Assembly (NCBI GenBank): GCA_002269645.1
Contig: NIVC01004009.1
Coordinates: 836-64,835, forward strand
Direction: 5' to 3'
From: Macrostomum lignano
Lineage: Eukaryota
DNA length: 64,000 bases
The translations under genes were made by a program, and so were the position numbers. The notes below the pieces were generated by a model. That model was given only the letters and a program-made list of their open reading frames with translations. It made no database searches and was not told the DNA's origin. Of this stretch, positions 2,936 through 48,287 are shown piece after piece. The first letter of the stretch is position 1; each line of letters opens with the position of its first letter.

Positions 2936-2979
2936 AGGGGGATTGTAGTTCTACTGCTAATGCTATTCGTATGCACGTT

Positions 2980-4779: not shown

Positions 4780-4938
4780 CATAAGGTCGAAATTTCACAA
4801 CATCGAAAACTCTAGCAAAGGGACTTCATAAGGTCAAATTTCACAACATCGAAAACTCTAGCAAAGGGACTCCATAAGGTCAAATTTCACAACATCGAAA
4901 ACTCTAGCAAAGGGACTCCATAAGGTCAAATTTCACAA
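4780..4938. repeat. 46-bp tandem repeat (~3.5 copies), with degenerate relatives at 3744-3870 and an inverted partial copy near 4990-5010
   Basis: Unit CATAAGGTCAAATTTCACAACATCGAAAACTCTAGCAAAGGGACTC recurs at 4827, 4873 and 4919. Confidence 0.85.
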
Positions 4939-5656: not shown

Positions 5657-8600
5657 ATGCAAGCTTCATCGTCCGCCACCAGCGTGCCCACCAGTGACTC
5701 CAGCAGTAACAGTCGCATGTCCAGCACCCGAATCTTCATCCGGGGCTTGTCTCCCGGCACAACCGATCTGAAAATTCGGCAGCTCATTGCGCACGAAGCC
5801 GGAGTTCCTGATCACTCCATAGTGTTTGCTCAAACCATCTTGGATTCGCAATCTGGCCAGTGTAAAGGTGCGATTTCAATTTCTTATGTAGTCTGTTTTA
5901 TCATGCAAAGTATGCCAAGTGCATTAGTTTGCGATTGTAATAATATATATATAATTTAATACGCAACCGGCAAACCCGACACCCTCAATTACCCCAGGTA
6001 ATGCTGACACCCATTTTACAGCTGGGTGAACTGAATCAATGCAGAGTTTTAAGTGTCTTGCTCAAGGACACAAATTGTTCCGAATGAGTCGAGAATCGAA
6101 CCCCGACCTTTCAGTCGTGAGTCCGACGCGCTGACCACTGGGCTGCAACCCCTGAATTAGTGATGAAAATTTAAAATATTTAATTGTGAGTACCTACGTA
6201 ATTACTATAATAGATCATGATAAATGATACTCGTACGATAGTGAACTACTAGTACTCAATTTCAAACCAAAAAAATAAGGCTTCAAAACAAAGAAACTGT
6301 GGTCGAAGAGCAAGAAAAGTGAACAAGAACTTTCACTCACATTTAGGGACCGGCTTCGCTGAATTTCGAAACGCAGAGCGGGCGAAGATGGCAGTAAGAA
6401 ATATTCAGCAGCTGCAAGCCACGAAACATGCCAGCCAGGGACAATTGAAGGTCGAATTCGCTCGGGTGAGTCTTCGATATTTTTTATTAGACATCAAACT
6501 TTCTGATAGCGCAGCATTTCAAATGCAATGCCGAGCACCCACCGTGTACAAAATACAGGAGGCAGAAAAGGACGGCAAAGAGATGTTCGTATGGAATTTG
6601 CCTGTCAACTGCACGATGGAGGGGATTAGACAGTTTCTACTATACGAATGCAATTGTCGCGAGGATGCGATCTTGTCATTCAGGACTTTTCGTGCTAACC
6701 CATATTATTCAACAGGCCTTGTGAAATTTAAAACGGAGTTCACGGCTTCACGTGTTATCCAACTCATCAATCACAATGGGCTAAGGCTCTCCCACAAATA
6801 TGGATGCTCTGGGCGACTTGCTGCTAAATTTTCTGAAAAAAAGACCCGTGATGTCGGTGGTCGACCAGTCTGCCTTGAAGATATTGTGAAGCCGAGCGCG
6901 CATCTTCTTGTAAGTTTCCTCATGGCTGTACTACCCAATTGTAATCAAGGTTGGAGGTGGGTAGCTGCCTAAGTAAAGCGAGTCTAAAAGGACACCGTTT
7001 AGCCTTTTGATTGCATCAAACCTATTCTGCAGGCTAAGTCAAGCAAGCCTCGGTTTTACCCTACACCAGACTAGTGATATGCTCTAGATGGCTCGTATTA
7101 AGATATAAATGCTCTAATATCGCCTCATACTAATAGTACGAACTGACCAAGCTTACAAAATACGAGTACATGTAAATGCAACTTGCAGCTGCTGTCAGCT
7201 GAGATGCTCCTGTGGTTCTTTGAATCCTTATCGCTTATCTCATTCGATACTTGCAAAGTCTGGAGGTTAATACAGTAGGAGAATGATGCAGAGTGGCACT
7301 GAGGGGAATAATGCTGAGTAGTACCTCGTTAATGCATTGATATGACAATTGAGAAGACTATAGCATATTACTATTGCTATGCATATTGTTAAAGTCACGC
7401 TAAAATGGCCGGAGCGATTCGTCTTTCTCCTACTATTAGACAGCATACTCTACTTAAAGAGAATTTTTAAAAAGGATAATTAATCAAAACCTTAACTGAC
7501 TGTCCAATAATTGACTCGGATCATTCATTCTGAAATTCATTTCAGGAAATCACAAAGGAACCACTCGAACTGAAAGACGCCGAAAACCCATTCAAATGGT
7601 GCGCATACGATGGCTCCGACAAAAATATAGAGGATGTGATCGACACAATTTCGGACCGACTGAAACTTGAGCCAATGCTCTCATCGGCTTATCATGGCCT
7701 CCTGGCTGCTTATCACGGAACCAGATTCAATCGGCGTAAGCATATCGACTTCACAAAGTCAAGGGACTCCTTGAAGAGCGCAATAGACTATTGCAAAGAC
7801 ACAGATGAAGGTCATGTCAGATGCGAATTCGTCTTGCAAGCCATTGAGTTAAACCTGGATGCTAAGCAGAGACGGAACCAGCTCAACTTCATTAAACGCT
7901 TCGAGGCCCTCAACAAGATTTGGAACACTCAAGATGAGGCCAAGCGCATCGAGATCAGAGCCAACGTTTTTCACGTTAAAGCTCTGGACTTTTTTCACCA
8001 AGGCATAAAAAAGTACGATGAAGCAGAGGAAGCTGTGAAAGCAAGTCTGAGCTTGCGACCGGATAACTTCATGTGCATCTACCTGCTGGCGTATATTCGT
8101 GCGCGGGTGCGTCGCCATCACAACAACAGGACGCCTGCTGATGCGGAGGAGTTGTTCCTGTGGAATCGTGCATATGATCTGGCAAATGAACACCGGTGGC
8201 AGGATAAGAATGAAGGAACAAAAATGTACTTCTATCAGTTTTTAATAAACTATGCGGAGGCTATTTTGAACAACCGGAGCTTAGAAGACAAGTGCCTGGA
8301 ACTCGCGAATGCCACGTACCAAGCATTGAAAAACATAAGTACTCAGGTATTGGATGAACATTACCGAATTGTCTTCAGGTGTGAAAAAATCTTTCGGATT
8401 CGCAAGCATCCAGAAACGCAGGAACTCCAGGAAATATTGCAACGCCTAGAGAAGGATACTAGAAATTCTGATCTGCTTTTCAGATTAGCGATGTTGGCTG
8501 AAGAGAAAAAAGATGATGAAAGGTGCGAAGAGCTGCTGATAAGGGCCCAAGAGTTGTCCTATGAGCCTGGACACATTTGGGTTGATATTTATTATCAAAA

Positions 8601-10059
8601 CTTCAAGGAAGCTAGACCCGAAAAATTTTCGAAGAATACTATTTTGAATACGTATGACACTCTCGCTAAAAGATATAAACGTTATGGTTATCCCAGGTAC
8701 GAAGCCGTTTGTCTGTACTCGAAGGGAGCCTTTATGATGACATTTTCTGAAACAGAGAGCGTTGCTGATGGTTTTGAAGAAATGGTCAAAGCGGTGCAGG
8801 TCTATCCTGAGGTTCGAGTTCATATCCATAAATCGAAAAAAGATGAGACGCTAAAAAATCTGAGCCAGAAGACTGACAGATGCGAATTCGAGGCTTGGTT
8901 TCAGCAGCATATGCTGGACCTTGACTTGCAGTCAGATGAACCACAGAGAATTGTTCAGCTCTATACCGAAGCATTGAATAGTGAAAACTCGGATCACCAG
9001 CTGGTGTACGAGCATCTTGGTCTGTTATACTTTCGCCTTCGAGACTTTCAAGCTGCAGAAGAAAATTTCCGAAAACTTCAGTCTGAAAATCCTCGCAGAA
9101 ACTCTCTGCTGTCGTCCGCTTTGCTCAAAAGAGCCGAATCGAGAGATGAAGCTGAAAAGAGAGACTTGATTGTCGAGGCTCTCCGACTTGGAAACCCGGA
9201 GGCGTGCCAGCCCGCTCGACTCTTGCTGGACAACCGACTGGATCATCAGCGGCGGTTCCCTCTAGAAGCCATCAAGCAGAAGTACTGTCCTGAGGACACT
9301 GACAGACCAGTGCAGATCGTGCCGTGGCTGTTCAGCAAGGACTCGTACGAGCTGCTCGCTCTGATCAGCATCGCGTCACAGGAGGACAATGAAAACTACA
9401 CAGAAACGTCGCCTCTGGTCCAGACGGATCTGCAGAAATCGAGACTGGCTCTGGAGCGAGTAGAGCAGCTCGGGAAACAGACTGAGAACGATTATTATAA
9501 TGCCATCATGGAAACCCTGAAACTCGCAAAAAGTGCAATGGATGGATTAACTGCAAAACTGGATGGCAACGAAATGGAAAAGAGGCTTGATTACTTCCCA
9601 TACGGTTTCAGGTATATGACTGTAAAAAAGGATGAGACAAAAAAGTTGATTTGCGGATTACAGAAACAAAGCCACGAAAATCGAAGAACGGAGATTAACA
9701 AGAAACTTTCAAATTTGCTCAAGCTGAAGGCATCCGCAAATGATGAAGCGAATCAGAGAGTAAATGCGCTCGTTGATTTGCTGAGCGCTCGAGAATCAAA
9801 AGCGTTTCAGTTCCAGCAGCCATTTGCTTGGCTTGTGATCTGGCAGGAGTTGAGAAATAAAGCGGAGCACTCGAGCGGACAGAAGCCCATGAAGACTTTG
9901 ATTCCCGAGTTATTGGAGGCCTGGAACTGCGACCCAGATTGTGCTGGAAGCGTCGCGCACATGGCTGCGGAGTTCGTTGAGGAGACCCGGCTGATATTCG
10001 AGGCCGAGACTGAGGAGCTTCAAAAAGCAATTACTAAAGGAGGCCAAAGCACCAATTGA
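5657..10059 (+). CDS. Copy A: RRM-RRM / IFIT-like TPR / HEPN-like protein, ~1064 aa; exons 5657-5867, 6347-6465, 6559-6909, 7546-10059
   Basis: All four exons join in frame through GT-AG introns (phases 1, 0, 0). Exon 1/2 splicing builds RNP2 IFIRGL and RNP1 KGTGFAEF. Exon 3 holds a second RRM (MFVWNLP...STGLVKF). Exon 4 is a long helical TPR-like ORF ending in a domain with WQELRNKAEH. Intron 2 is 93 nt and stop-free, so it could be retained; the start codon is uncertain. Confidence 0.8.
5955..6152 (-). mobile_element. tRNA-derived SINE with CORE-like central domain, in intron 1 of copy A
   Basis: Minus strand: CAGTGGTCAGCGCG (A box), GGTTCGATTCTC (B box), GTGTCCTTGAGCAAGACACTT...CACCCAGCTGTAAAATGGG (CORE/MIR-like), followed by a TA-rich tail. 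Confidence 0.8.
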
Positions 10060-29291: not shown

Positions 29292-30207
29292 TCAGTTGAA
29301 AATCAGGCACTCAAACTTCTTCATCGAGTACGACAAAACAAGTGCGCTAGCAGATCCAGATGCATGAAGAAAGTAATAGATTCCCTGTGTGTTAATATTG
29401 GGACACACTTGGTAGACTCCGTTCAGCTCCATGAATGCGCACACGCCGTACCACCACCCAGCGGACCGGTGTTGTGCGCAGCTGTCTCCACTCCAGTTGT
29501 CATTGTCGGAGTCCGGAGTGCTGAACTGCCAGTTGTTTGGAGAGTAGTTCGTATCAGGAAGCTGTCCGACACTCGACCTGCTCGCGTCCAGAGGTCCCAT
29601 CGAACACCTGTACTTGTCGCTCGCTGGGCCAACAGAGAACGGAGCATTCTCAGCCCAGTACCAGGTGCCGTTCCAGTCGCTGAACTCCCAGCGAACTCTC
29701 CACACTCCAGTGGCGGTGAGCTGGTGGAGCTGCTCCAGTCCCATCCAGTAGTTGAGACTCTCGCCCTGACCGAATCCGCTCGTGTAGTCCGCCCAGTTCC
29801 GGTTGAAGCTGTGCTGGAAGGTCGTCCAGCACTTCACCGGCTTCCTTATCTGCAATGGGCGATTTCATGCACGCATATTGAAGCGGTGCTGAAAAGTGCA
29901 GAAGCCGCAAAGCAAAGCCCAGATCACTCACCCACAGCTGAGGCAGGCTGGAGTCGCTGGCGTGGCGGCACTTCCTGCAGGCGTCCATCGCTCCCCGATC
30001 GCAGGCCAGCAGCGAGCAGGAGCCCGAGGCCGCGTCGAAGCGGACGGCATCCGCGTTCTCAGCAACCGTTGTACAGTGAATGTCGCTGATGGCCAGCTTC
30101 ACCGCCAGCACCCGGTACTCGGCGAGGTCGCCTCTGTGGATCTCCCAGCCGGAGTCTGCGGCAACAGCAGTTGTCATGACAGCGCAGATGATTAGCAGAG
30201 AATGCAT
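29292..30207 (-). CDS. Secreted fibrinogen-related (FReD) protein with PAN-like N-terminus; exons 30207-29932 and 29849-29292, ~277 aa
   Basis: Signal peptide MHSLLIICAVMTTAVAA; 82-nt phase-0 intron GTGAGT...TTGCAG; FNRNWADY..GFG...YWMGLEQLHQLT, FSTPDSDND, GWWY..C....LNG.Y. Confidence 0.85.
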
Positions 30208-30547
30208 TGTGCCGTGAGACAGCAGTTGTTTGAGATTCCGCAGTTTTGCTCCGTGTGTTGGCATCCCCGGAGGCTGCGCTTTGATAACTCGAGTTTGGAG
30301 GTGACTGAGTTTTGTTTATTTACAACTGCTTGGCAACAATGAGCGCACAAGCGGATGAGGAAAGAGAATTGAGACGTCAATTTTTACTACTCAGTGTACA
30401 GTTAGCGGAACGGCTGGAGGACAAAAGCAGGAGACACAGCAATTGCAGACGATTATATTCGCTAATGTAAGCAATTGGCTAATGAAGCGAGAAAAACTAG
30501 AAATTGTGATTACGAGTAATGGAGGCTAAAAGCAGAATAAAAAACGC

Positions 30548-30888: not shown

Positions 30889-31810
<922 letters not shown>

Positions 31811-32545
31811 AGAGGAACGCACATCCAATCCCAGGCGCTGACACGGTGAAAGGACTGATAAAAGTCAATTTACTTCGAAATAGTTAATGTTACCGATATT
31901 TCGAGTAAGGTTACTCTTCGTCAGGGCAGTACTCATATTCGAGTATAGTTTATTTGCGCGAATTGCTGTCAAAATATTTAAAGGCGATAACGTTGGGGAG
32001 GAAAATCGATAAAGAGAGAGGTAGAGAGAGAGAGAGAAGAGAGGTCACGGCGTGTTTACAAAATAATTAATTTAGTATGGGCTAACGGTTTCGAGCCTTT
32101 GGGCTCTTCGTCAGGCCAAAAATCAGTGTTTCATGCAGTGCAAGTTGGTCTTTTAAGTATTAGTTTTCTCAGTCTAATAAAATCGCTGAGCTGCTGTACA
32201 TATGAGGGGTGTACATTTAAACTGGGTTCATTCTAGCTCTAACTTGTCCCAGAGGCTTTCAACCGGTCAGTTTAAGCGACGGTATATTTAGTATATTAAA
32301 AAATTGTTTTTTCGAAGTTACGATTAAATAAAATGCGGTATTGAGGGTGGGAGCATAAAAATCGACATTTGTGCGTACAGTCAAGCAGTTTGAATAAAAT
32401 ACACGACAAAGTGAATAAATATTGTAGTTCTATAGGTAAAAAGAGCGCATTGGTTAAAACGATTCAATGGTTTCCTGGCTGGACGCTGGACGATCCGTTG
32501 GAAATAGACCCAGATCTCAACCTTCTTCCATTTCCGATTGAAAAC

Positions 32546-33652
32546 ATGGCGCGAAGGAATCCTGCCGTCCATCGAGACATTAAAGAGACAGTTGGGTCTT
32601 ACACTATGGACAAAGATTTTGCGACCTTCATTGACCACTTTGATTTGGTATCAAGAGAATATGGATTACAAAATCCAGAAAAGGCGCTACTCCTCCCTCC
32701 ATTGCTACAAGGCACAGCCCGAGAAATTTATGGAAAATTAGATGCAGCTACACAACGAGATTACCATGCCATGATCACCCAACTTCGAACACAGTTCGCA
32801 CGATGCGGAACCAATCGATCGGTGTTGTTACATAAATTACATAACCGGAAAATGACACCCACGGAATCATTCCTCACCTTTGTCGATGATATTCGACAAA
32901 TCATCAAAGCCTTGCATCAACAGCAACCGCAACCAGCAGCAGCAGCTCAACCCCTTGGACCAGCAGAAGTGGCTGCTAGAGAAAGACAACGGCTTGCAGA
33001 TCAAAAGCAAAGTCTAATTCTTAATGTCATTAACAATGCTCAACCTGCCTTGCGAGATAGACTCCTGCGAGAAACAATTGAGACAGAAGAACAGTTACTC
33101 CGCTGTGGAATGCAGTGGGAGGCAAGCGCACCTCTTCTGGCTAACCGCACTAGTGACACCGCACAATTAGCAGAACAATTAAGCAAGCTTATGCAACAAC
33201 ACCAAGCCGCAGCAATTGCAATGCGCCCGCCACAAAGCAACCCTCGAAACGTTACTTGTCACAATTGTGGAAGAGTAGGTCATTACTACAGAGATTGCCG
33301 CCAAAACTTGCGTCAGAATCAACCACGAAATTATTCCGGTGGAAACAGACGAGACAACTGGTCCCGCTATCCAAACCAACAATATCCATCAAACAGAAAT
33401 CGGATGAATAATCGACCACCACCATGGCGGGATAACTTACAACCTTACAACTCACGCCGACCCGCTCCACCAAGGCAGCCAACGCAGGTGCATAGACAGT
33501 ACACACAGGCCATTGAACCACAGGCCAGTGAACAACAGGCTATCGAACCAAAATTTTCGGTAGAAGAATTAACACCAGATTTCAGTATCAACGTACGTGA
33601 TACTCTCTTTGAAGATACCGACTACATGTTACCATCTCCAACGGTGCAATAA
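32546..33652 (+). CDS. gag: Ty3/Gypsy Gag
   Basis: Retrotrans_gag-like F..FIDHF...KALLLP.LLQGTAREIY...ESFLTFVDDI and CCHC knuckle CHNCGRVGHYYRDC. Confidence 0.9.
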   Translation: MARRNPAVHRDIKETVGSYTMDKDFATFIDHFDLVSREYGLQNPEKALLLPPLLQGTAREIYGKLDAATQRDYHAMITQLRTQFARCGTNRSVLLHKLHNRKMTPTESFLTFVDDIRQIIKALHQQQPQPAAAAQPLGPAEVAARERQRLADQKQSLILNVINNAQPALRDRLLRETIETEEQLLRCGMQWEASAPLLANRTSDTAQLAEQLSKLMQQHQAAAIAMRPPQSNPRNVTCHNCGRVGHYYRDCRQNLRQNQPRNYSGGNRRDNWSRYPNQQYPSNRNRMNNRPPPWRDNLQPYNSRRPAPPRQPTQVHRQYTQAIEPQASEQQAIEPKFSVEELTPDFSINVRDTLFEDTDYMLPSPTVQ

Positions 33653-35640
33653 TCCGAACCGGAATACGAGAATCTTGCTACAATTCTTAATGCTGAAAAA
33701 CGGAAACGGACAAACAAAGGTGTGAACACTCAACCGTTCCACTTCTCACGTAACCGATTCACTCAAACAGAAGATAACACCTACGTTACGATGAATGTCG
33801 GAGAACTGCATCAACAGACTTCTTCTACGCCGACTCGACCAGAATTCATGGGTACCTTTCGAAGACACCCTACAGCGTGTCACCCACCAGCGTATCAGGA
33901 ACCTTTAACACCTGTACCCCACTCAAGAAAATGGTTCTTCCGTCCACAAGACATCACTCCATCTGAAGAACCAGAAAACGACTACGAGGAACTGGACGAA
34001 ACCACGATCACAAGTCACTCCAACAAGAAAGGAGAACAAGAAGAAAGTATGCCGATGCCGAAGAAGAGCAAGAAGAGACACCCTCTAATGAAATGGCTAT
34101 TTGCGATGATCCTTTTCGTCCTGCTACCACTGGTAACTTCAACTTCAGTACCAATGATTTGTCCTACAGACGCTACCATCCAGCCGGTCATCTACAAAAT
34201 TCCTACGGAAATCAAATGCAGTTATTTTAAGACGAATCAAACAAAGCCGCTACCGCTTACAATCGACATCTACAAAGCGAATACAAAGAAGCATCGACAG
34301 ATGGGAATTGTGTGCTTTAGAGACAAAGACGAACTCGAAAAGATTTGGTTGGTACAATGGAACCGAATCAGATATTGGCAAACATCGATGAAGGTATCAC
34401 ATGAAGAATGCCTCCAGTGGAACCAAACCCTGTTTTCCAAAGACGGTGAATTGAAGCTCCACGACACGTCAGCAAACGGAGCGCAACTATTCCGCACCAA
34501 CAACGTAGCCGAAGGAAGATATGTGCACTACCACGCAGCACGATGGCCTCTGTATACTGTCTACAACAGCTATCTGATTCGAAACGTCTTGTTCTACCAC
34601 AATCCTTTCGAAAACATGGAATCCTTGCAACTACCGCTTGACCAATGCCACTACAGCTCAGGATATTGTGCTACTCCTAACTACAACAAAGAGAAAGCTC
34701 AAAACTTACCGCTAGCTCCGAATTATTTCCATGACTATCGATACCAAATCGAGTACAGATCGGATTCTCGATACAAGGAACCGAGTCGAACTCGCAAATA
34801 TTTCATCGCATGGGAAGTCAAACTGAAATTGACTGCAAACTACAGAAATACCATACTGTTCAGGGAAAACTGCTATCTAACATCTTCCTTGCCGATTCTG
34901 GAGATCTAGCTCTTACCTTTCCAAAGCAACCAAGCTATACACAACTGAAATGCAAGGAAAACAATGAACAACTAATTCTATCTGACCAAGAAATACCAAT
35001 TGCACTGAAGGACATGGACAAGAATGTATTTTTGAAGGTGATAAATGGTACCTATCCAAGAGAAGAAACCTTGGAAAGACAAAAGCGAAACTTGCCCAAA
35101 CCTTCGTTAGTATCAGCACGACTTCTGGCAGCAAAACTAGCCGCCATGGAACACACAAACTGCACAAGCAACTGAACTATCTGCATCGCTCCATGGTCAA
35201 ACTGACATGTCGAATGCACGAGACCAGTCTAAACTACGCGCGACAGAACTACTACGTCAACCCTACGACCACCTTCAGGAAAATCACAGGAATTGAAGAT
35301 GTCCTCGCCGTTCCGGTTTATGGATACTTGCTAATCTACAAGTGTACTCCGATCCATCACTTTAACATCTTGTCATCAAACACGTCAACAACTTGCTACG
35401 ACAAACCGCGGATTGAAGCCTTCTACAATGGAAAGCGAATTCGAGGATTTTTGGATACGGTCCACAACATCATTGTCGGAACTGCCATCCCACGACCATG
35501 TACCAATTCGGCCAACTATTTCAACGTGAACGATCTACTACATCAAATTTCGCCAACAGGAGACATCAAGAACATCTCGAAATCACAAGCCATTGTTGAT
35601 GAAATTTACGAAATGTCGGATCTTCAACTGAAGTTTAATA
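33653..35640 (+). pseudogene. env: env-like glycoprotein between gag and pol, broken by two frameshifts (~34810 and ~35180) and lacking a TM anchor
   Basis: In frame with gag across one TAA. Internal signal-like stretch WLFAMILFVLLPLVTS (~34094) followed by MICPT...IKC, GIVC...VSHEEC; furin-like RQKR at 35077-35088; NPTTTFRKI...LLIYKC. This cysteine pattern recalls class III (chuvirus/rhabdovirus/gB-type) env ORFs of invertebrate LTR elements. Confidence 0.65.
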
Positions 35641-35644
35641 GAAC

Positions 35645-38600
35645 AACGAAATCCTCATCCCCACAGCACTGGTACTAATCAGCCGACAAAACGATTCCGG
35701 TACAAATCGTCAATCCTAACCAGCACCCAGTGAGAATCTACGCAGGAACCTGCATCGGACATCTCAGCACACAAGCGTCAGTGATGCTTATTCAATCAAC
35801 ATCGACAACATTGCCAAGGACACAATTCCTAGAACAAATCGATCTGTCACAAAGTCCAATCACCGAAAAACAAAAGAACCAAGTTAAAGATATTGTATGG
35901 AAGTACAACGATGTTTTCTGCCACCACGACTACGACATTGGACGAGCCAAAGACATCAAACAGAAGATCACACTGCTGCCGCACCAGGAACCGATTCAGT
36001 GCAAACCGTGTCCGATTGCAAAACATCTACAACAACACTTCGACGAGATCATCGAGAAAATGCTCAAAGCCGGTATCATCAAGAAGACAGTTTCAGCCTA
36101 TTCCTCTCCATGCTTGCTTGTCGAGAAGAAGGACACAAACGAGAGAAGACTTGTCTGCGATTTTCGAGTCCTAAACAAGTATATCCCGACAGATCAACAA
36201 AGCCCACCCAAGATTTCGGAACTAATGGCGAGACTCAACACAGCGACACTCTTCACAGTCTTTGATCTACGACATGGATTTTGGCAAATCGAACTAGAAG
36301 AAGAGTCTAAGCAATACACAGCCTTTAAGACGTACAATGGAGAAGTCTTCGCTTACCAAAGAAGTCCTATGGGAATTTCAAACTCACCTGCTACAATGAG
36401 CTGACTAACAGCCTACATGCTTGCTGGATGTACCAATCTACTCCACTATGTAGACGATATTCTTGCCTTCGGAGAAGACTTCGAACAACTACTCCAAACG
36501 ATGGAACTCGCGTTATTCCTTCTCAGGCGACAAGGTCTCAAACTACAACCCACCAAGTGCAAGTTTTGCCGAAGCTCGGTACGATACTTGGGACACCACG
36601 TATCCGCAAAAGGAATCTCACCAGATCCAAGTAATGTGGAGAAAGTAAAGAAATTACCACGAACAACCTCTATAACAAAATTGCAGTCCTTTCTTGGACT
36701 AGCACAGTATTTCCGAAAGTTTCTGCCAAACTTTGCCAAAACTGCCAAACCGCTATACGAACTGCTCAAACAACCAAAGTGGAAGGAAGAAAACTGGAAG
36801 GACGAACAACAAGAAAGCTTCGAAAAGATCAAACAGCAACTGACGACCGACGCCTTACTGCAACATCCAAACTTCCAAAAACCCTTCATCATTGAAACCG
36901 ACGCCTCAGGAAGTGGACTAGGCGCAGTTCTACTGCAAGAAACGGAAAGAAAAGTCGAAAAGCCCATCGCCTACATCAGTCGAGCTCTACGACCAAACGA
37001 AACCAAATGGTCCGCCACAGAAAGAAAATTACTTGGAGTTCTGTTCGCACTACGACAGTTTCACTACTACATCTACGGTTCTCCATTACCGACAATTTTC
37101 AGAACCGACCATGCACCGCTGACGCACGTTGTCCAGACGAAAGGACAGACTAACAACCGCCTCATCCGAATGACACTCAAAATTCAGGATTACAACTTCC
37201 AACTAGCCTACAAACCGGGACCACTCAACAAAGCAGCAGACGCACTCTCCAGAGCTTACGAAGTCAACGCTATCCATCCGATTCCGAAAATGCAAGAACT
37301 GATTACAGCACAGCAAGACGACAACTTCTACAAAGCCGCACAAAACACCGACGACACCACGCAAGCCAAATTAACAGAACAAGAAAGAAAATTCCTTAAA
37401 AAACAGCGCGACAACCTAATCTTCAAAGAATCAATCCTTTATTGGATCTGTGACAATATTCCGCGAATCTATCTGCCATATTTGTTTCGACCCGCTATCT
37501 TGCAAGAATTGCACGACATGCCATTAGCCGGACACCTTTCCGCTAAGAAGACAATCGAACGAGTGACAAAATTCTACTTTTGGCCGACAATGGTTGGTTA
37601 TTCGTAAGTGAGACTTTAGGTCGGAATATCTTTATTATGAACAACTGCACTTTCAACTATTGCAATCTGTAATGGTCTTCGGCACTATGACAATTGCGCC
37701 ATATTGATACTGCACAATTAACTTTCCATAGCGCTAATCTTTTGTTGTTGGTGTTTGCTGTTTTGTTCTAAAAATAGGCGTCCATTATCCCGAGTTTGAA
37801 ATCATTATCCTGAAGTTTAAGTGAAAAAATAAATAAATGTGCTCATGGTTTAACCATAGACGATTGCATTATCCTAAAGGCTGATTTTAGACAATGACCA
37901 AAGACATCAGCAAATATTGCCACGAATGCCACTCATGCGCAGCCGCAAAAACGGGACGACGCCAAAAGCCACAACTACAAACAGTACCGAAAACAACGAC
38001 ATGGGACACAGTCTCCCTCGACATTTCGGGACCACTACCTGCCGCACGACAACACTCGATCAACTACACATACATCCTCACCGCTCTCGACGTCTTCTCG
38101 AAATTCGCTATAGCAATCCCACTGCCGAACATTACCGCCGAAACAGTAGCTATGGCGTTCTACAACGAGATTGTCTGCAAGTATGGAACGCCCAAGACTC
38201 TAACCACCGACAACGGAACGCAGTTCACCTCACAACTATTTCAACAGGCTGCAAAACTGCTTAACATACAACAAATATATACGTCTACCTACAACCCCAA
38301 AGCAAACTTAGTAGAAAGATTTCACCGCAATCTACACGAAATGCTGACCCACTATGTCTACAAGCAACCAGAAGATTGGATCATCTACTTGAAAGCGGTA
38401 ACAATGGCATACAACAGCGCGAGACATCGGTCAACGGATAACACGCCATTCTTCTTGATGTTTGCTCGAGATTTTCAACCGCCCAGCCTACTCGCAAAAC
38501 AATTACTACCATCTCAGTACGTGGAAACACCGCCGACACTCCAGACCTTTGCAACGCGACTACACCTGGCTTGGCAAATTGCCAAACACACTTTTGACAA

Positions 38601-38967
38601 CCAGACGGCAACATCGACAAAAACCAACAACGCATCTACGCTACAAGTCGGAGATATGGTCTATTTGCACTATCCAGCACAACAGACGCACAAACACGCA
38701 CAAAAGTACAAAGGACCATTTCGTGTATCAGCACTGACTTCGGCAACCACAGCCAAACTGGCCAATGTCCAAGATCCACATCAGCTGCAGTTCTACGTGC
38801 ACATTCATCGACTGAAACGCATCAACACAGACTCTACATTTCTGCCAAATTTAAACAATGAAAATCACACAAAAAGACCGTCTAAACACATTGCTACTTC
38901 TCACGCTGAAACACAAACTACGGACACTCCCATAACTAACCACCCCTATAGCCTTAGACCCCGCTAG
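35645..38967 (+). pseudogene. pol: Ty3/Gypsy pol (RT-RNaseH-integrase); protease absent, stop at 36402, insertion at 37593-37889
   Basis: YSSPCLLVEKK, RLVCDFRVLN, FDLRHGFWQI, YVDD, IETDAS..GLGAVL, HDMPLAGH...CHSC, LDISGP, DNGTQF, ERFH, KGPF. Confidence 0.95.
37593..37889. mobile_element. 297-bp AT-rich insertion in the integrase, with 7-bp TSD
   Basis: GACAATG at 37586-37592 and 37890-37896; removing the insert restores FWPTMTKDISKYC. Confidence 0.8.
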
Positions 38968-39072: not shown

Positions 39073-41088
39073 ATGGCTAAAAAATTCGAATGCCCTGTCT
39101 GTCTAGACAACAACCTTCCGAAGAAACCGCCATGTATATGTGTAAATAATCACCGCACATGCGGCACTTGCCTCAGTGACGCTCATTATATCCAGCCCTG
39201 GCGAAATTGCCCCATGTGTCGAAGCGCTCTACGCCAATGCATGATTTGTACATCATGGCGCACCTACAAGTTCTGTACCAATGAACATTTTCTATGCATG
39301 CGTTGCATCAAGAAATTAGCTAGGCGATCAGTGCTTCTGTGCCCTGAATGTGATGCTTTTCCTCTGGTAAAAATGCGCGACCAACTTTTACGTATACAAC
39401 CGGTACAAACGGTTCAGTTATCTGCATCCATAGTGCATCAACTCGCTCCAATAGACGTTATTCGCCGACTAGACAAGTGGCCCCTTCCTAAAAACTCTCG
39501 CTCCGCATATGTGCACCTCGTTATGTACGAGGTGTATTCAAAAAGTTCTTTTCGGTGCCCTACAAAACTGAACACAAAACAACTGGAACTATGAAAACAC
39601 TGTTAGATTGCTTAACATGATTCTGTCACTCAACATATTCACCGCCAATGTCTTTGCACTTCTGCCAGCGATTTACCAGGCCTCTGATTTCGGAACTCAC
39701 ACCACTCGCGTCCGTTTGGCGAACAGCTTGATTGCATGCAGCTTCGATGTGCTCGACGCTGTCAAATCGAATGCCCCGAAGGTGCTTCTTCACAGATGGA
39801 AATAAGAAGAAGTCGCACGGCGACAAATCAGGCGAATAGGGTGGATGTTGGAGCACTTTCCAGCCCCATTTGCTCAGGAGTTCCACGACGTTGTGCTTGC
39901 GATGTGCTGGCGCATTGTCGTGCAGCAGGATCACGCCAGATTCCAGCAGACCAGGGCGCTTCTTTCGTATTGCTGGGCGCAGCTTCTCCTGCAGAATCCA
40001 CTTGTAGTAGTCCCCATTGACGGTGGTTCCTTGTGGGACTGCCCAGTTCAGCAGGATTCCTAGGGAATCAAAAAACATGACGTGCATGATCTTTATCGCG
40101 CCCTGCTTCCTGATGGCCTTCTGAGGTCTTGGAGAATGTGCTGGAAGCCATTCGGCAGACTGGGCCTTTGTCTCAGGATCCCAGCTGTAAACCCACGTCT
40201 CGTCTCCAGCAACAATTCTTGATAGAAAATCCTCCCCTTCTCGATGGAACCGACGCAGGTGGCTGCTTGAAGCCAGAGTTCGCTGCATCTTTTGCTCACC
40301 TGTCAGCAGGTGTGGCACCCACTTGCAGAACTTTTTCTGTAGGAGAAGACGCTCAGTCAGAATAGTGTGGACGCTTCCACTGACACACCAACGTCTTCTG
40401 CCAACTCTTCGCAAGTCCGTCGCCGATCATCATCCAAGAGCTCTTGCACTTTCTTCACAACAGTCTCTTTGGTTGCAGTCATCGGCCTTCCAGAGCGGCC
40501 ATTGTCCTCAACGCTCTCTCTTCCCTCAGCGAACAGCCGGTACCATTTTCGAACTGTCTGCTCAGTTGGTGCACAGTTGCCAAGCACTTGCTGAAGCTCC
40601 CTAAACATATCCGGTGGCTTTTTTCCTTGCAGAAACTGAAACTTCATCAAGCTTCGAACGTCTTGCTTTGAAAATGATTCAGCCATGGCCAAGAAATTGA
40701 GTGGCAGCTGATAGAAATGTTCGCTGCTCTAACATAGTTGCAAACTGAGACTTAAAACCCTAGGAACGTTTAGGCCATAGACATAACTTGGTAAAATCGC
40801 TAAAATTCTGCTTACAACGCTTTCTAAAAATAAATGCCAAAGGACCGAAAAGAACTTTTTGAATAAACCTCGTACACACATCATAATAGACACCGACTAA
40901 TACTCTTCCCGTTACAACGAAATCAACAACGTTTGTTACAGTATCTATCAATATGCGAACAGCCAAGTCTTCCATTCCACTGTGCTATAATACCCCTACT
41001 TATTAAGAAGCATGCCGATTTAACGATGTTATTAAAGTATAGCGAGCTAATAGCCTGGCAAGGCGATACGTACGACGAAGTCGATTAA
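39073..41088 (+). CDS. Double-RING-like protein A1 (222 aa once the mariner is removed; segments 39073-39527 and 40875-41088)
   Basis: CPVC...CVNNHRTCGTC...CPMC followed by CMIC...CTNEHFLCMRC...CPEC. The reconstructed frame is open to GDTYDEVD*, matching the uninterrupted copy at 44211-44441. Confidence 0.75.
39528..40872 (-). mobile_element. mariner transposon (DD34D), 1345 bp, with TA TSD and one frameshift
   Basis: TIRs CGAGGTGTATTCAAAAAGTTCTTTTCGGT / ACCGAAAAGAACTTTTTGAATAAACCTCG; TA at 39526 and 40873; HTH exon MAESFSKQ...GRP; GDETW, HDNA, HPPYSPDLSPCDF; frameshift near 40380. Confidence 0.97.
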
Positions 41089-41121
41089 TAAAGTATACCA
41101 GTACCTCCCCTTATTCCCCAG

Positions 41122-41724
41122 ATGGAATCATGTCCCGTGTGCTACGAGGAAGAAATCACACCATACGTCTACTGCCAGAACGGACACAAGCTGTGTTTCC
41201 TCTGCTGCACTACAGAACTGATGGACAAGTGCCCCCTGTGCCGAGCACCACCTACCAACTGCCAAGTGTGCAACGAAGTCCCACAAAGGCAACTCTGTGG
41301 AAACAAGCACTGGGTATGCCACGACTGCGTAATGTCAATACAGTGACGCAACATGACAAGGTGTGTCACCTGCGCTCAACCAATCTTAATCGACACCCCG
41401 GGCAACAATGACCACATAATCACGCTAACGACGAATACCTTAAACAACTTAAGGACAACTGATCTTGCCCAGATCATCAGAGAGTGGCCTATACCCTACA
41501 ACCGGCAGCCACAGCTAACCTTCTTGTTCCAACGGGCCCGACATTACGCCATGACGACAAACGCCCTTCCTGCGGAGGAAATCTACCTCAACCTACTTCA
41601 CGAGACCAACACTCAGGAGTACACAGCCGTTCAACACCTCATCTGGCCCATAGCATTACTAACGGCAAGTATCAACAATTACTTCATCACAACGCTCAAC
41701 GACCACTTTGCTTCTTGCTACTAA
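41122..41724 (+). pseudogene. Double-RING-like protein B1, with one nonsense codon at 41344
   Basis: CPVC...CQNGHKLCFLC...CPLC and CQVC...CGNKHWVCHDC...CVTC, then IREWPIP. TGA where B2 has CGA. Confidence 0.75.
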
Positions 41725-41851
41725 ACATTCACATAGCTCAATTGACTCTACCTTCCACCAATTATGGCCACATAGAAAACAGCATTGTTTCTACGCACCA
41801 ATCACAAACAATAACCATCGAAACACCCGAGTCCACTACAATTAGTCTACG

Positions 41852-41852
<1 letters not shown>

Positions 41853-41901
<49 letters not shown>
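41853..41901. repeat. (TA)n microsatellite
   Basis: Pure TA run; the paralogous position near 45237 has only a few TA units. Confidence 0.95.
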
Positions 41902-41905
<4 letters not shown>

Positions 41906-41975
41906 ACTACTCGCCTACATACATAGCACACGCCTTACGAAACTACCCTACCACGCTACCATATCTTGCCTTACA

Positions 41976-42584
41976 ATGCCTGAAGTAGAATGCCCCGTCT
42001 GCCTGGAGGAGGCCACCTACCAGCAGGTGATGTGCCAATACGGGCACAAAACCTGCTTCAGGTGCGTCGACTCCGGCATGATAGCCATTTGCCCACTATG
42101 TCGCGACCCCCTAATAGCGTGTAGCCTTTGCGGGGACAATCCCCAGGTGAAGCTGTGCCAGTCTCGTCACTGGTGCTGCTTCACCTGCCTGCAAAGGCTG
42201 GGTACACGTGGTATCACCTATTGCCCTAATTGCCTTGACACTCTCCTTCCCCCGACAGTAGAATTAAACCAAAATACCGAAATCTGGCCAGAGGTGGGCC
42301 TGCATAACCTGGAACAATTCACCGAACGAGAAATCGCCGACAATATCCGAGAGTGGCCGCTGCCGGTCGAGTTGCACGACGCACGCCAGCGACTGCTAGC
42401 TTTCGGCCGGCAACAAGCGGTTACGGAACCGCCTAGATCGGCGGAGGACATCTACAACCAACTAACTGATACGATGAACAGCTCCCACTACATCCCACTA
42501 CAACATCTGTTCTGGCCAGTCGCCAGCTTGGTGACACGAACGCAACGATACATCCGGCGCACCTTGACGGACATTTTTCAATAA
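41976..42584 (+). CDS. Double-RING-like protein C1, intact, 202 aa
   Basis: CPVC...CQYGHKTCFRC...CPLC and CSLC...CQSRHWCCFTC...CPNC, followed by a helical tail with IREWPLP and LQHLFWPVA. Confidence 0.8.
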   Translation: MPEVECPVCLEEATYQQVMCQYGHKTCFRCVDSGMIAICPLCRDPLIACSLCGDNPQVKLCQSRHWCCFTCLQRLGTRGITYCPNCLDTLLPPTVELNQNTEIWPEVGLHNLEQFTEREIADNIREWPLPVELHDARQRLLAFGRQQAVTEPPRSAEDIYNQLTDTMNSSHYIPLQHLFWPVASLVTRTQRYIRRTLTDIFQ

Positions 42585-43874
42585 ACATTGTGACACTGTC
42601 ATGTACTCTTGCTTATCTTAACTGATTTACTTACGTAACTGTTTTGCTTGTATGTGTTGCTCCCTCATGTGTATCTTGTATACTCATATTTTGACTCTCC
42701 CCAATAAGTGACAATGACTATGTCTTCACCAACTTACTTAGCATCTGGCATGCAATTGCTTCCTTGTTCACATACTCAGCTGAAAATTATTATAATAACC
42801 ATGTAAATAAAACAATATTCACCAGTTCAACCCTTCAGCTTATAAAACAAATTCGAGACGAATTTTTTGTAAAAAAGGAGATATTGTAGAGATCTCCAAA
42901 TACGATACAAAGTAAACTACTGTAAGTAGTAACATAAAAAAGCGAAAAACTTGAATGTTATAAAAATTGCAAAATTGTCATACTCTATTTTAAGACCGTG
43001 AATACAACGTACGACGAAGCATGAGACAAGTTGCTACTATGGTGAAATATGTTGCAACTATGGTGAAATATGATAAAATATGATGAAATCTGATGAAATA
43101 TGATGAAATATGAGTCGCGCTACTAAGTATATACCAAAAATTCGTCTATAAATATAAGCGTAAAATCCGAGCTGAAACCTCAGACTCGGAGCAGCCTCAA
43201 AAGATCTTGTGGTTAGTTAGAGCAACTAATCGACGCTATATCTCTGGGAGAGAAGCGTATCAATTGTGAAGTGTTGTTCAAGTCTTCGTTATTTTGATTA
43301 ATTAAGAGCGATTTTATTGCCGGCCGGCCGTTGCTGATCCGTTGAATTTACTGAGACTATTTTAGGCCTCCCATTTTCCTAAGCGATTGGATAGGATCTG
43401 CGGATCGATTCCGATACCCTTAGAGGATTACTGACTGTTGATTTGGATTATCCTAGATTAACAGATAGGAGCACACGACTCCCATTCCGTTAGATCTAAA
43501 AGAAGACGCCCCTTTTGGAGGACCTCGCGTTAGAATTCGAGTTTATTAGGGCGCTCTGTTGATACTGATTTGGCACTCGAGAAACGTACTGAATCCCGCA
43601 CTCAAGGAGATATTTCGACGTCGACTTCACTGTTCTGCTCTCACTCTCGGCCGACTTTGGACTTCGAAGACTTCAAGAAGATTCCTCCGGAGAAGAAGAT
43701 TGGAAGAAGCGAACTCTACAAACGCGCGCATTAAAGAAGAAACAAGGAACAAGCTCGGAGAACCTGCCCGACACAGAAGAAGAATCCGCCACAGTAAGTG
43801 CACACGTTAAATTTGTTCCCAGGCTTAAGTGTCTGGAAGTGGGAGTTTACGGGTGACTGATCACCTCCCGAATC

Positions 43875-44441
43875 AACTCTTCAACCATATCCAATTTTGG
43901 CAAGCCTGCCCCATATGTCGTGGCGCCCTATGACAATCTATGATTTGTACATCATGGTGCACCCAAAAGTTCTGTAAAAATGAACATTTTCTATGCATGC
44001 AGTGTACCAAGAAACTAGCCGCTCGAAAACTGCTTATGTGCTCTGAATGCGATGCCTTTTTCCTTAGTACAAATGCGCGATCAACTCCTACGCATACAAC
44101 TGGTACGAACGGTTCAATTGGCTGAAAACATTGCGTACTAACTCGCTCCAATAGACGTTATTTGTCGACTAGACGATTGTCTATTTCCTAGAAACTCTCG
44201 CTCGGCATATGTGCACCTCGTTATGTACGCACATCATAATAGACACCAACTAATACTCTTCCCGTTACAACGTATTCAGCAACGTCTTTTAAGATACTTA
44301 TCAACATGCGAATTACCATGCCTCCCATTTCATTGCGCTATATTATCGATACTTATTAAACGAAATGCTGATTTAACCATGTTAGTAACGTACAGTGAGT
44401 TAACAGCCTGGCAAGGCGATACGTACGACGAAGTAGATTAA
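43875..44441 (+). pseudogene. Double-RING-like A2, 5'-truncated, with a stop at 43931 and a frameshift
   Basis: Nucleotide-level copy of A1, lacking the mariner. Confidence 0.75.
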
Positions 44442-44474
44442 TAAAGTATACCAGTACCTTCCCTTATCATCCAG

Positions 44475-45077
44475 ATGGAATCATGTCACGTGTGCTACGA
44501 GGAAGAAATCACACCATTTGTCTACTGCCAGAACGGACACAGGCTGTGCTTCCTCTGCTGCACTACAGAAATGATCGACAAGTGTCCCTTGTGCCGAGCA
44601 CCACCAACGCACTGCCAAGTGTACAACACCGTCCCACAACTACAACTCTGTGAAAACAAGCACTGGGTATGCCACGATTGCGTAATGTCAACACAGCGAC
44701 ACAAAATCACAAAGTGTGTCACCTGCGCTCAACCGATCCTGGTCGACACTCCGGACAACAATGAACACAAAGTCACACTAACGACAGACAGCTTGAACAA
44801 CATGACGACAACTGACCTTGCCCAGATCATCCGAGAGTGGCCTATTCCCTACGACCGATAACCACAGCTAACCTTTTTGTTCCAACGGGCCCGACATTAC
44901 GCCATGATGACAAATGCCATTCCTGCGGAGGAGATCTACCTAAGCCTACTGCACGAGACCAACGCTCAGGAGTACGCAACGGTTCAACACCTAGTCCGGC
45001 CCATCGCACTACTAACGGCAAGCATCAATAATTACTTCATCACAACGCTCAATGACCACTTTGCCTCTTGTTATTAA
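44475..45077 (+). pseudogene. Double-RING-like B2, with one nonsense codon at 44859
   Basis: Copy of B1; TAA where B1 has CAG. Confidence 0.75.
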
Positions 45078-45278
45078 ACAATAACATAGCTCAATTGACT
45101 AACACTCAGATAGGGATAAATAGTAAACACCTACCTTCAACCAATTATGGCCACGCAAAAAAACATTGTTTCTACGCACCTATCACAAACAATAACCATC
45201 GACACTCCCGAGCCAACTGCAATTAGTCTACGATAACATATATAGGCCACGGCTCGCCAACATACACAGCGCAGGTCC

Positions 45279-45585
45279 TGTTGTGACTTTTCATGCAAAT
45301 AAAGTAGAGAGCGCTAAATAGAAGTTTGTAGTTAACGAGAGAGCGTTCTGGAGCTAGAGAGCCCGCGCGCGAGCCTAAATAACTTACTAGCCGATTTTAT
45401 TGATTCGCGTAGATAACAGAACCACAGAAGAGGGGGTGGAACGTACATTTATCGAGAAAGATAAGCGATGGACGAAGGGGGGTGGCGTACATGGGGGGCC
45501 GAGGCGCTGATCAATAAGGTGGATGGTTAGGCAGAGAGGGGAGCAAGTGCAGGCGCACTTATATTAAAATAACAATTTAGCGACA
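45279..45585. mobile_element. Solo LTR, 307 bp, TG...CA, with 5-bp TSD
   Basis: GGTCC|TGTTGTG...AGCGACA|GGTCC; absent from the paralogous B1-C1 spacer. Confidence 0.85.
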
Positions 45586-45608
45586 GGTCCTACTAAATCT
45601 TCATTTAC

Positions 45609-45902
45609 AATGGCAAACACAGAAGAAGAGTGCCCTGTGTGTTGGAGGCGGCCACCTTCCAGCAAGTAATGTGCCAATACGGGCACAAAACCTGCTTTAG
45701 GTGCGTCGACTCAGGAATGATAGCTACGTGCCCCCTATGCCGCGACCTGTTAATAGCTTGTAGCCTTTGCGGGGACAATCCCCAGGTGAGGCTGTGCCAG
45801 TCCCGTCACTGGTGCTGCTTCACCTGCCTGCAAAGGCTAGGTACACGCGGCATAACTTACTGCCCCAGCTGCCTCGGCACACTTCTTTCCCCGACGGTCT
45901 GA
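45609..45902 (+). pseudogene. Double-RING-like C2, frameshifted after CPVC and 3'-truncated
   Basis: Near-copy of the C1 RING region. Confidence 0.75.
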
Positions 45903-46865
45903 AAAGTACTATAAAAAGCTCATGTTAACCAAGCAAGAAGCTCGCCCCTCCCTGGCCTTGCCTCTCTTTCGCCTCTCTTCTCCCTTCTCGCTATTCTAAC
46001 TACTTTTGGTTAAAACAGCTAGGGTCTCAACCCAAACACTAAAACTGATAAATTGACTCACTAAAACTAAAACAACAACCAACCCACGTTCCACAATAGA
46101 CGGAACCTTCGGTTCACCCGAACACTTAGAAACCCATTGGAACTCGAACAAAACGAGCTTCTTATTTGGAATTCCATCTTAGACATTATATTTTGTAAGA
46201 TAACATCTCGAGATTGTGACCATCAAATACAACGGTCTATAAGTTACCATCAAGTGTTTGCATCATCAGGAAAAGTCAGTTGAATCCGCCGCCTCAGTTA
46301 TTTGGCTCTCACATTGATATTTGAAGTAGAACAAGAGCCATAGAAGTGAGAGACCAGAAGAAGAACAATAACATATATTTTAAAATATTTCACTCCTCTA
46401 TGCGACGTAATGTACAGAATATGTGCCACTGCAGCATCTAATATGGCCGATGGCATGTCTAACACAAAAGACACGGAACTAACATGGGATACATTCTGAT
46501 ACACATAACTATTCTGAGACTAACAGATACGAGCTACAGTAAGATAGTGCAACGTTGTTCTACTATATCGGAATTCTTACACCCATGCCTGACTCAAATA
46601 TACTCGTACCAATAGATATAACATGGTATCACAGGAAAATACTTTTAATCTATGTCCAGGCCACCGTAATTCAGAGTGAAACTTGAAACCAATGCATGCC
46701 GGCCTAGAAAATATGCGCTACTTTTCACCAATTAAAATTTAATGGTTGCAACAACGAACCAATGATAGCCGCCATGCGTACCTACATATATATACTCATT
46801 AACAACCATCCATGCCTTGCCAAACACCCTTTGTAAAAATTTAACACAAGACTATACCCTCCGAG

Positions 46866-47489
46866 ATGGAAGATATGTGCCCCGTTTGCCTGGAAGAGAA
46901 ATCCCAGCAACGACCCCTCTGCCAGAACGGTCATGGAATATGTTTCACCTGTTTCGATATGGGCTTCAGTCACAACGGTTCATTATGCCGTGATCCGATC
47001 ATTAGCTGCAGACTTTGTGGGGAAGATCCCAACGTGAAACCATGTAGCTCCAAACACTGGAGCTGTTTCACATGCCTCCAGAGGCTAGCACGACGGGGCA
47101 TTAGCTATTGCCCCACCTGCTTCGGGCCGATAGAACCGGCCGCAGCTCATCTAGTACAACAAACGCCAAGACACAATGAACTCGGTCTCAACAACCTAGA
47201 AGCCTTACCAGCACATGAGATTGCTGCCAATGTGCAGGCTTGGCCAATACCAACTAGCCTGCACGGTGCGCGTCAACATCTTCTGGCCGTTGGACGATAC
47301 TACACCATGGCCGACAGTTTGCTGATCCCGGAGGAGGAGGTGTACTACCACCTCCTCGAGGCAACAGAAGACACGCAGCTAACCACAATTCAACACCTCA
47401 TGTGGCCCGTGGCGGTGTTGACAGCCAGAGTACAGAGAATATTCCACATATTTTTGACGAACATTTCGATTAGAAAAAAAACAAGCTAG
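46866..47489 (+). CDS. Double-RING-like protein D, intact, 207 aa (diverged C-type)
   Basis: CPVC...CQNGHGICFTC...(S)LC and CRLC...CSSKHWSCFTC...CPTC, followed by VQAWPIP and IQHLMWPVA. Confidence 0.8.
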   Translation: MEDMCPVCLEEKSQQRPLCQNGHGICFTCFDMGFSHNGSLCRDPIISCRLCGEDPNVKPCSSKHWSCFTCLQRLARRGISYCPTCFGPIEPAAAHLVQQTPRHNELGLNNLEALPAHEIAANVQAWPIPTSLHGARQHLLAVGRYYTMADSLLIPEEEVYYHLLEATEDTQLTTIQHLMWPVAVLTARVQRIFHIFLTNISIRKKTS

Positions 47490-48287
47490 GACTCTCACCT
47501 GCATACGAACATATTTAAACTTTTAACGCGACAATCGGTTATTACGGTTTAATATTATGTCAATATATTGAATATATCAAATAACGTTTTCCATATCATT
47601 AATGAGCCGCTTGCCTACTGTAAATCGCCTTTAAGTCCCAACGTAAATTCGGGAGAAATTTTTCGTAAAAAAGGGAGATATTGTTGAAGTCTCCAAGCCT
47701 CATAACCTACTAGAAGTAGTAAGATAAAACTATGAATACTATTTAAAAATTAACATGCGTCAAAGTAATAATTTTTAGTAATACATGCAATATCACGTAA
47801 ACAGAGAGTGACCATCAACATAGTCCAAAAAACCGGTTTTCAACCTATATGGTAAATGTCAATTTAAATGCGATCCAAGCTTCACCCTTTTCTATGTAAA
47901 ACCCCACCGGTCAAGAGACAAAGTCCATCTTTTGATTCTTATCAGTAGAATTTTCCATCCGTTCCACCTCCGAGAGTAATTCAGAAAACTATTGAATAGC
48001 ATGCTGCGACATAGTGCCCACAAAGACGTAGATAGTTAAGGAGCGAGCAAATCCAGTTTAATCAATCCTCGCCAGCGCCGATGAAACTCCCGCGGCAAAG
48101 TTTATAGTAGGCCTAGAGAAAAAAACCCCAATAAAATCGATCATCCTACGATCCCCACCCCCAGTAGGGGTAAGAGCCGTAAATAAAACAGCGGAGGCCC
48201 ACAACCCTCACCCGCGTACATTTGGCTAGCCACGTATGTACAATGCCAAAACAAGAATTAACTAACAGCCGAAATTATTCCCGCACA

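Follow-up and report, generated by a model that had tools for sequence, protein, structure and literature searches.

A Ty3/gypsy family of Macrostomum lignano with envelope between gag and pol, seen through a decayed copy

In the 64,000-nucleotide stretch of Macrostomum lignano DNA analyzed here (the window), a gypsy element carries envelope-like sequence between gag and pol, behind a gag frame that closes in a TAA. This arrangement raises the question of whether the order is natural to a lineage of retroelements or peculiar to one damaged copy. A sequence-only reading had offered both: a gag-env-pol lineage with a Gag-Env polyprotein or readthrough, later stripped of the env 3' end and the protease by deletion, or a recombinant chimera. 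Comparison with relatives makes it highly probable that the window holds a decayed Ty3/gypsy copy, that intact members of its family have a single frame of ~2,500 codons for Gag, a class III Env, and Pol, and that the TAA and the gap are likely lesions of this insertion.

Gene order and intact relatives

The family has well over 100 copies, about 25 of which we read; by DNA identity to the window it divides into three subfamilies (about 90%, 75-83%, and 68-72%). Among 23 sequences tested (22 loci plus the window), env precedes pol in all 15 copies that have both parts; gag-env-pol is the normal order of the family. A TM anchor and a protease lie between env and pol in 12 of these 15, and the other three are the window and two copies named C272 and C4067. 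The remaining tested sequences are a deleted derivative (six, described below) and fragments (two). In an own-genome DNA search with the env-pol join of the window, which scored 40 of 170 candidates, many relatives keep about 1.07 kb between both sides of the join.

One relative, L013, translates without a stop into a protein of 2503 aa (P0001), in which Pfam matches follow one another in the order zinc knuckle (residues 258-273), fusion protein (965-1092), protease (1333-1421), RT, RNase H (RH), and integrase (IN); a second, L015, has a single open frame of 2502 codons. Together with the uniform gene order, these frames bear out the proposal of a natural gag-env-pol lineage with a polyprotein. 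Gag and Env are indeed joined, but the extent of the fusion had been understated: in intact copies the one frame takes in Pol as well. P0001 has the PR-RT-RH-IN order of the Metaviridae with gypsy-type domains, and the RT-RH neighbors of the family are Ty3/gypsy proteins.

With a query covering the env tail, TM, and protease, we scored 136 places out of 1085 candidates. The whole env-TM-protease join is spanned by 54 of these places, at 47-100% identity, and 52 of the 54 are stop-free. At least 16 of the scored places belong to open frames that are at least 2450 codons long, with domain content checked in C717 and C583; some of these long-frame places are just 24-28% identical to the query, and therefore more distant families share the design.

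LTR pairs are 98.9-100% identical in six relatives, and the 4-base target duplication, read by eye, is exact in five of the six, indicating that the family is young. LTRs of the form TG...CA, a primer-binding site, and a polypurine tract are present in relatives, and the window copy keeps the tract and the 3' LTR. Searches for the primer tRNA genes gave no match for either of two patterns.

The window copy and its lesions

Table 1. Features of the element copy in the window (positions are those of the window).
Feature	Positions	Strand	Evidence
Unrelated high-copy repeat in place of 5' LTR, primer-binding site, and leader	32048..32482	.	Similarity to relatives starts at 32483
gag part, capsid region and CCHC zinc knuckle	32546..33652	+	PF00098, E 1.4e-4; 84% identity to P0001 capsid part
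In-frame TAA closing gag, most likely a nonsense lesion	33650..33652	+	Stop in window, C272, and C4067; sense codon in C391 copy (90% identical)
Acidic, proline-rich, fast-evolving Gag-Env linker	33653..34084	+	dN/dS 0.44
Internal signal-like hydrophobic stretch behind basic cluster, predicted to start Env translocation	34085..34144	+	Kyte-Doolittle peak in P0001 and P0002
Predicted class III (gB / mononegaviral G-like) Env ectodomain, Cys-patterned, gapped near 34818 and 35151	34148..35647	+	86-91% identity to P0001 env
Deletion join, out of frame	35645..35648	+	1,063-1,081 bases missing vs three relatives; ~3 bases fit either side
Rest of pol: spacer, RT, RNase H, integrase	35648..38967	+	RVT_1, RT_RNaseH_2, Integrase_H2C2, and rve matches
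~300-base high-copy insertion in integrase zinc-binding domain, window copy only	37586..37889	.	Absent in C272 and C4067
Cargo gene 1, double RING-HC, interrupted by mariner	39073..39524	+	
Mariner/Tc1 transposon, 33-base inverted ends	39524..40876	-	Absent in C272 copy
Cargo gene 2, double RING-HC, internal stop at 41344-41346	41122..41724	+	Sina_RING, E 3e-7
Cargo gene 3, double RING-HC and helical tail	41976..42584	+	Open frame, 202 codons
3' LTR, TG...CA, about 1 kb, behind polypurine tract	42885..43883	+	Matches both C391 LTRs at 91-96%

The gag frame closes in the TAA that the sequence-only reading had named (Table 1), and a Pfam scan of the window places the zinc knuckle (PF00098) at gag residues 237-253, about 33254-33304. 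The claim that the same frame runs on without a stop holds for 33653-34909 (418 codons), but near 34818 a 1-base gap takes the env-like sequence out of it and into frames 34735-35175 and 34986-35678 in turn, with a second small gap near 35151. The linker of P0001 contains 20.6% D/E and 10.3% P. The Env ectodomain has a furin-type RxKR at 35077-35088, and its last piece (frame 34986-35678) matches PF24664 (Monjiviricetes_fusion) with an E-value of 2e-5, below the curated cut-off.

Pol-side similarity to relatives begins at 35645-35648, where pol-like sequence had been said to resume, and the window contains neither a protease nor an env TM, as also claimed. The proposed loss of the env 3' end and the protease by deletion is confirmed by comparison with three relatives; the lost segment comprises the env end, TM anchor, tail, protease, and first half of the PR-RT spacer, and its length leaves a remainder of 1 when divided by 3 against all three. 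The join at 35647 is not due to chance, since two further assembled copies, C272 and C4067, carry it at 97% identity. Its support consists of these three assembled contigs; among the contigs listed from four runs, which cover all 30 bins of the window copy, none bridges the join.

Other damage includes a stop codon in RT at 36402-36404. Contigs of all four runs skip the insertion in the integrase domain, with 7 bases fitting either side. Contig depth is 270-8800 over the repeat at the 5' end versus 17-490 over gag, and no upstream repeat of the 3' LTR occurs in the window, where the copy is without a 5' LTR. Because the 5' LTR, TM, and protease are missing and the linker and RT contain stops, the window copy cannot move by itself.

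The TAA and the 1.07-kb deletion are found only in the window, C272, and C4067. All three share the upstream host flank at 31400-32047, and the window and C272 share nested sequence behind the 3' LTR; they therefore go back to one insertion, either duplicated along with host DNA or existing as alleles. In C272 and C4067 a 1-base gap breaks the frame 45 bases past the TAA. Given this early loss of frame and the confinement of the stop to a single insertion, the TAA is most likely a nonsense lesion rather than a readthrough site.

We examined the stretch from the zinc knuckle to the env start in 19 copies, leaving out one without a knuckle match. Ten of the other 18 are open, three have this TAA, one has another stop, and four have 1-base gaps. 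The C391 copy, an independent insertion with its own flanks, has a sense codon at the TAA site, and its frame stays open from the linker across env and into RNase H; its own stop lies earlier in the linker, at a different codon, and there is a further stop in the capsid. None of the copies fetched from the window's subfamily is fully open; the window-type and C391 insertions both have a linker stop. Many 1-base gaps occur in one copy each and could stem from assembly errors, so some of the apparent lesions of the window may not be real. We also considered a programmed frameshift near the env start, where four of six copies of the large subfamily have a 1-base gap, and rejected it on the absence of the gap from the other two. 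Copies in this subfamily have 8-13 scattered 1-base gaps each; since the env-start gap is one among these and is missing from two copies, we read it as an inherited lesion or an assembly error.

Could the TAA instead be a programmed readthrough site, tuning Gag against Gag-Env in the window's subfamily? The frame stays open for about 390 codons past the stop, with a dN/dS of 0.17 versus C391; this other insertion of the subfamily also carries a linker stop, and a 1:1:1 polyprotein would presumably gain from extra Gag. Yet the two linker stops lie at different codons, each copy having sense where the other stops, two of the three TAA copies shift frame shortly downstream, and the majority of knuckle-bearing copies run open into env. 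The low dN/dS past the TAA is accounted for by selection before the insertion, and we found no stop conserved across independent functional copies with an open frame downstream. Readthrough, which the earlier reading had entertained, is thus very improbable. It is just as hard to believe that the form with TAA and deletion was mobilized and spread in trans as a non-autonomous, Gag-only element. Three assembled copies of this form exist, and at least five sites were reached by another deletion derivative of the family, but the shared 5' flank marks the three copies as one insertion duplicated with host DNA or as alleles, and on this ground we rejected a mobile TAA subfamily; the search with the 35647 join found no fourth copy among the 40 scored candidates. 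A one-off recombination or misassembly might also have put env ahead of pol, and the heavy rearrangement of the window copy and its nesting among relatives speak for this, but all 15 copies with both parts share the order, across three subfamilies and down to about 70% DNA identity, and proteins of other data sets have it too. We rejected the recombinant chimera, along with the possibility that intact relatives are gag-pol-env and this copy a one-off, as almost certainly wrong.

Envelope, RING cargo genes, and a second derivative

Our model of the L013 (P0001) ectodomain covers 589 residues (36-sequence alignment, pLDDT 76.8, pTM 0.53). All PDB matches listed by Foldseek are herpesvirus gB (best E 6.5e-20, TM 0.23-0.37), and the BFVD matches are nyavirus G and rhabdo-like, chuvirus, and entomopoxvirus glycoproteins (best E 6e-25, TM 0.42-0.44); the TM-scores of all these fold matches are low, 0.23-0.44. 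Because the model matches herpesvirus gB and nyavirus G, the predicted fold of the envelope is that of a class III fusogen. The polyprotein has exactly two hydrophobic peaks (Kyte-Doolittle, P0001 and P0002), at 616-634, behind a basic cluster, and at 1218-1236, which flank the ectodomain; in P0001 the ectodomain has one RxKR site, at 948-951, and 13 cysteines. The family thus has the gB-type arrangement of a predicted class III ectodomain between a signal or TM and a TM, the latter being deleted in the window copy.

Env is under purifying selection, with dN/dS values of 0.13 and 0.06 between L013 and L015 and of 0.05 and 0.04 between L013 and L011. Values for enzymes, capsid, and env range from 0.01 to 0.13 (RT, 0.015), and the linker stands at 0.44.

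We collected 64 distant env homologues and scanned the 19 longer ones for domains. In 15 of the 19 (16 with one weak case), gag or a knuckle precedes env, or a protease follows it, in the same chain; RT or integrase precedes env in none of the 19. On a quick RT-RH tree of 35 chosen proteins, in which 14 of 32 branches are open, the family groups with two env-before-RT proteins, one of them named from Macrostomum lignano (SH-aLRT 99), and five further env-before-RT proteins, two from nematodes, are placed elsewhere without resolved links. The closest named proteins from M. lignano reach 82% and 40% over RT-RH, and the closest reaches 66% over part of env. The PR-RT spacer has no solved-structure match at E 1, and a dUTPase-like fold is not supported.

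Two or three genes per element lie between pol and the 3' LTR, encoding two tandem C3HC4 RING patterns and a helical tail. In 12 aligned RING proteins the zinc-ligand positions are invariant or nearly so, as is, without exception, an arginine behind the first RING, which we take to be the E2-activating residue. The cargo proteins likely act as ubiquitin ligases. The dN/dS of the RING genes is 0.21-0.27 in four of five measurable pairs and 0.92 in one close pair, and at least 150 places in the genome were scored for them. In most of these genes an acceptor-like CAG lies either directly ahead of the start codon or within a conserved motif that follows the pol stop, and on this basis the family seems to use splicing; the RING proteins are likely translated from spliced or subgenomic messages of their own. 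No homologue of the RING protein was found among 42 candidates. Its Atlas matches, all under 0.9, are to RING-labelled viral clusters and serve as a lead only. A limited search of the open-access literature found no paper on RING cargo in gag-env-pol elements; PMC5408684 does not mention RING, and the available passages of PMC4604429 contain nothing on the element.

The deleted derivative is of a different kind from the window copy. Here env is joined, just behind the furin site and in frame, to the last residues of pol, with about 8 shared bases at the joint, giving Gag and half of Env in a 1031-codon frame, with both RING genes kept. Its six copies are about 99% or more identical and occupy at least five different sites, and their LTRs are 99.4-100% alike where both were seen.

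Published elements and proposed expression

Burro / GYPSM1, a group of giant gypsy-like elements from planarians, is reportedly the subject of a review by Arkhipova and Yushenova. According to the available text of PMC6431247, the single polyprotein of Burro includes an in-frame env, placed after gag and before pol, that matches mononegavirus fusion glycoproteins, and Burro also carries extra domains tied to ubiquitination; ORF1 measures about 4,900-5,100 aa, in an element of over 30 kb with BIR, BCL2, MATH, and ankyrin. The family described here likewise has env in frame inside one gag-env-pol polyprotein but is compact, with 2,500 aa in 11-12.5 kb and separate double-RING genes after pol, and the 2503-aa P0001 has no BIR, BCL2, MATH, or ankyrin Pfam match at E 0.1. 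Judged by its domains, the family appears to work like Burro without being a Burro.

In the accessible portion of their paper, Chary and Hayashi (2026; PMC13524379) describe GAG-ENV-POL errantiviruses with HSV/gB-type ENV in Platyhelminthes, Nematoda, and Bryozoa, which are not monophyletic, and list a Macrostomum element, Platyhelminthes_Rhabditophora_Mlig_errantivirus_2, with 16 copies. These errantiviruses likewise have a Ty3/gypsy pol, a gB-type env, the gag-env-pol order, and many young copies. The env row of the listed Macrostomum element is not among the first 30 of 58 supplement places, and the comparison with it is by primer-binding site and spacing only: the 12-base primer-binding site is equal in two of our three subfamilies, whereas the window's subfamily has another, and LTR-to-LTR spacing is 9.7 kb there versus 10.4-11.5 kb in four copies here. 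The main text of PMC13524379, as far as available, makes no mention of a polyprotein, single ORF, frameshift, or zinc finger, and its discussion does not include the single frame or the RING cargo of our family; its figures may show single frames or cargo.

Nematode non-canonical endogenous retroviruses (Sacco et al. 2022, as cited in the available part of PMC13524379) include env before pol in a metavirus. In the nematode proteins P0086 and P0113, as here, a single chain has env ahead of RT, but they show no supported grouping with the family on the quick RT-RH tree. Insect errantiviruses (gypsy, ZAM) likewise combine a Ty3/gypsy pol with a captured viral fusogen but are gag-pol-env, with env a separate gene after pol, of F-type in Drosophila according to the same portion of PMC13524379. 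The novelty that the earlier reading implied for the order and the single polyprotein was overstated, both being in print for Burro (PMC6431247) and errantiviruses (PMC13524379) in the parts available. The element is a known kind seen through a damaged copy.

From hydropathy and motifs we infer the topology and cleavage of a membrane-threaded polyprotein. Gag would be made in the cytosol. Translocation of the Env ectodomain into the ER is likely started by the internal hydrophobic stretch and would be halted at the second one, so that PR-RT-RH-IN stays on the cytosolic side, attached to the Env tail. Signal peptidase, furin (at RxKR), and the element's own protease would cut the parts free, by analogy with flavivirus or alphavirus polyproteins. 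Gag, Env, and Pol would arise in equal numbers, with the enzymes held at the budding membrane.

Retroelements generally need excess Gag, and this favors a variant in which the single frame is kept, yet spliced or prematurely ended messages without env supply most of the Gag or Gag-Pol, the full polyprotein being a minor product. The acceptor-like CAG sites upstream of the cargo genes point the same way. Against it, contigs of four runs on the window copy show no joint across env, a weak objection as none is recorded as RNA, and the TM-tail-protease join is in frame in 52 of 54 copies. This variant concerns the expression of the family and is compatible with a decayed copy of a single-frame family; we regard it as rather unlikely. 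Equally speculative is a broader picture, in which the family may be a compact enveloped retrovirus-like agent of a flatworm with a flavivirus-style threaded polyprotein, expanding tandem-RING ligases directed against host control, and a young, in-frame derivative with an anchor-less half Env as its parasite, either defective-interfering-like or a source of extra Gag.

The TAA and the loss of protease and anchor amount to ordinary decay and are of little consequence. The family itself offers a compact, tidy case of a published layout with Env in mid-polyprotein, which raises the questions of how such a chain is threaded through the membrane, how a membrane-tied protease dimerizes, and how enough Gag is made. 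Dozens of young copies in a likely tractable flatworm make these questions approachable through native RNA and protein, and the double-RING cargo would extend the short list of host-manipulating accessory genes in retrotransposons.

Cargo genes and priming

Acceptor-like sites precede the double-RING genes carried between pol and the 3' LTR, both in the window copy and at the related loci L013, L015 and L019. Just 3' of the pol stop, all three subfamilies share a short conserved motif that includes a small hairpin. The primer-binding site of the window's subfamily (L011 811-830) differs from that of the other two (L013 662-680; L019); judging from these sequences, a primer switch between them is likely.

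Features of the window and of related element copies
Feature	Sequence	Position	Remarks
Double-RING cargo genes, two or three per element	window	39073-42584	inside LTRs
Double-RING cargo genes	L013	8600-9923	inside LTRs
Double-RING cargo genes	L015	8587-9850	inside LTRs
Double-RING cargo genes	L019	8972-10000	inside LTRs
Non-autonomous derivative copies	L024, L025, L037-L040	 	M. lignano (G000) contigs C2869, C525, C2828, C1192, C352, C301
Mariner element	window	39524-40876	33-base inverted ends; within cargo gene 1
Host gene remnant	window	29292-30315	minus strand; sequence spread over two frames
Inverted repeat pair, 1087 bases	window	8942-10028 and 20316-21402	

Derivative and distant relatives

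The deletion in the derivative is in-frame; Gag and the two RING genes remain, together with Env's N-terminal half, and this young, non-autonomous form occupies at least five insertion sites. More distant families, with open frames of 2458-2866 codons, are found on contigs C247, C270, C1672, C4280 and C1189, where identity to the env-tail/protease query used to search the genome is 24-28%.

The window copy and its surroundings

The sister copy on contig C272 lacks the mariner element. Window 32048-32573, which consists of a high-copy repeat and the element's first 90 bases, is missing from this copy and from the other sister, on C4067, possibly through imprecise excision. Elsewhere in the window, the host gene remnant contains what we take to be fibrinogen C-terminal-like sequence, and the inverted repeats, 96% complementary and separated by 10.3 kb, enclose a 23-base tandem array; the pair is perhaps a large DNA transposon.

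Immediately downstream of the 3' LTR, window 43884-47700 holds RING regions from older relatives, with the start of another LTR near 47682. Contigs C2121, C1130, C87, C272 and C1405 likewise have many RING matches each. Together, these observations suggest that the family has nested into itself, or that decayed copies are clustered.
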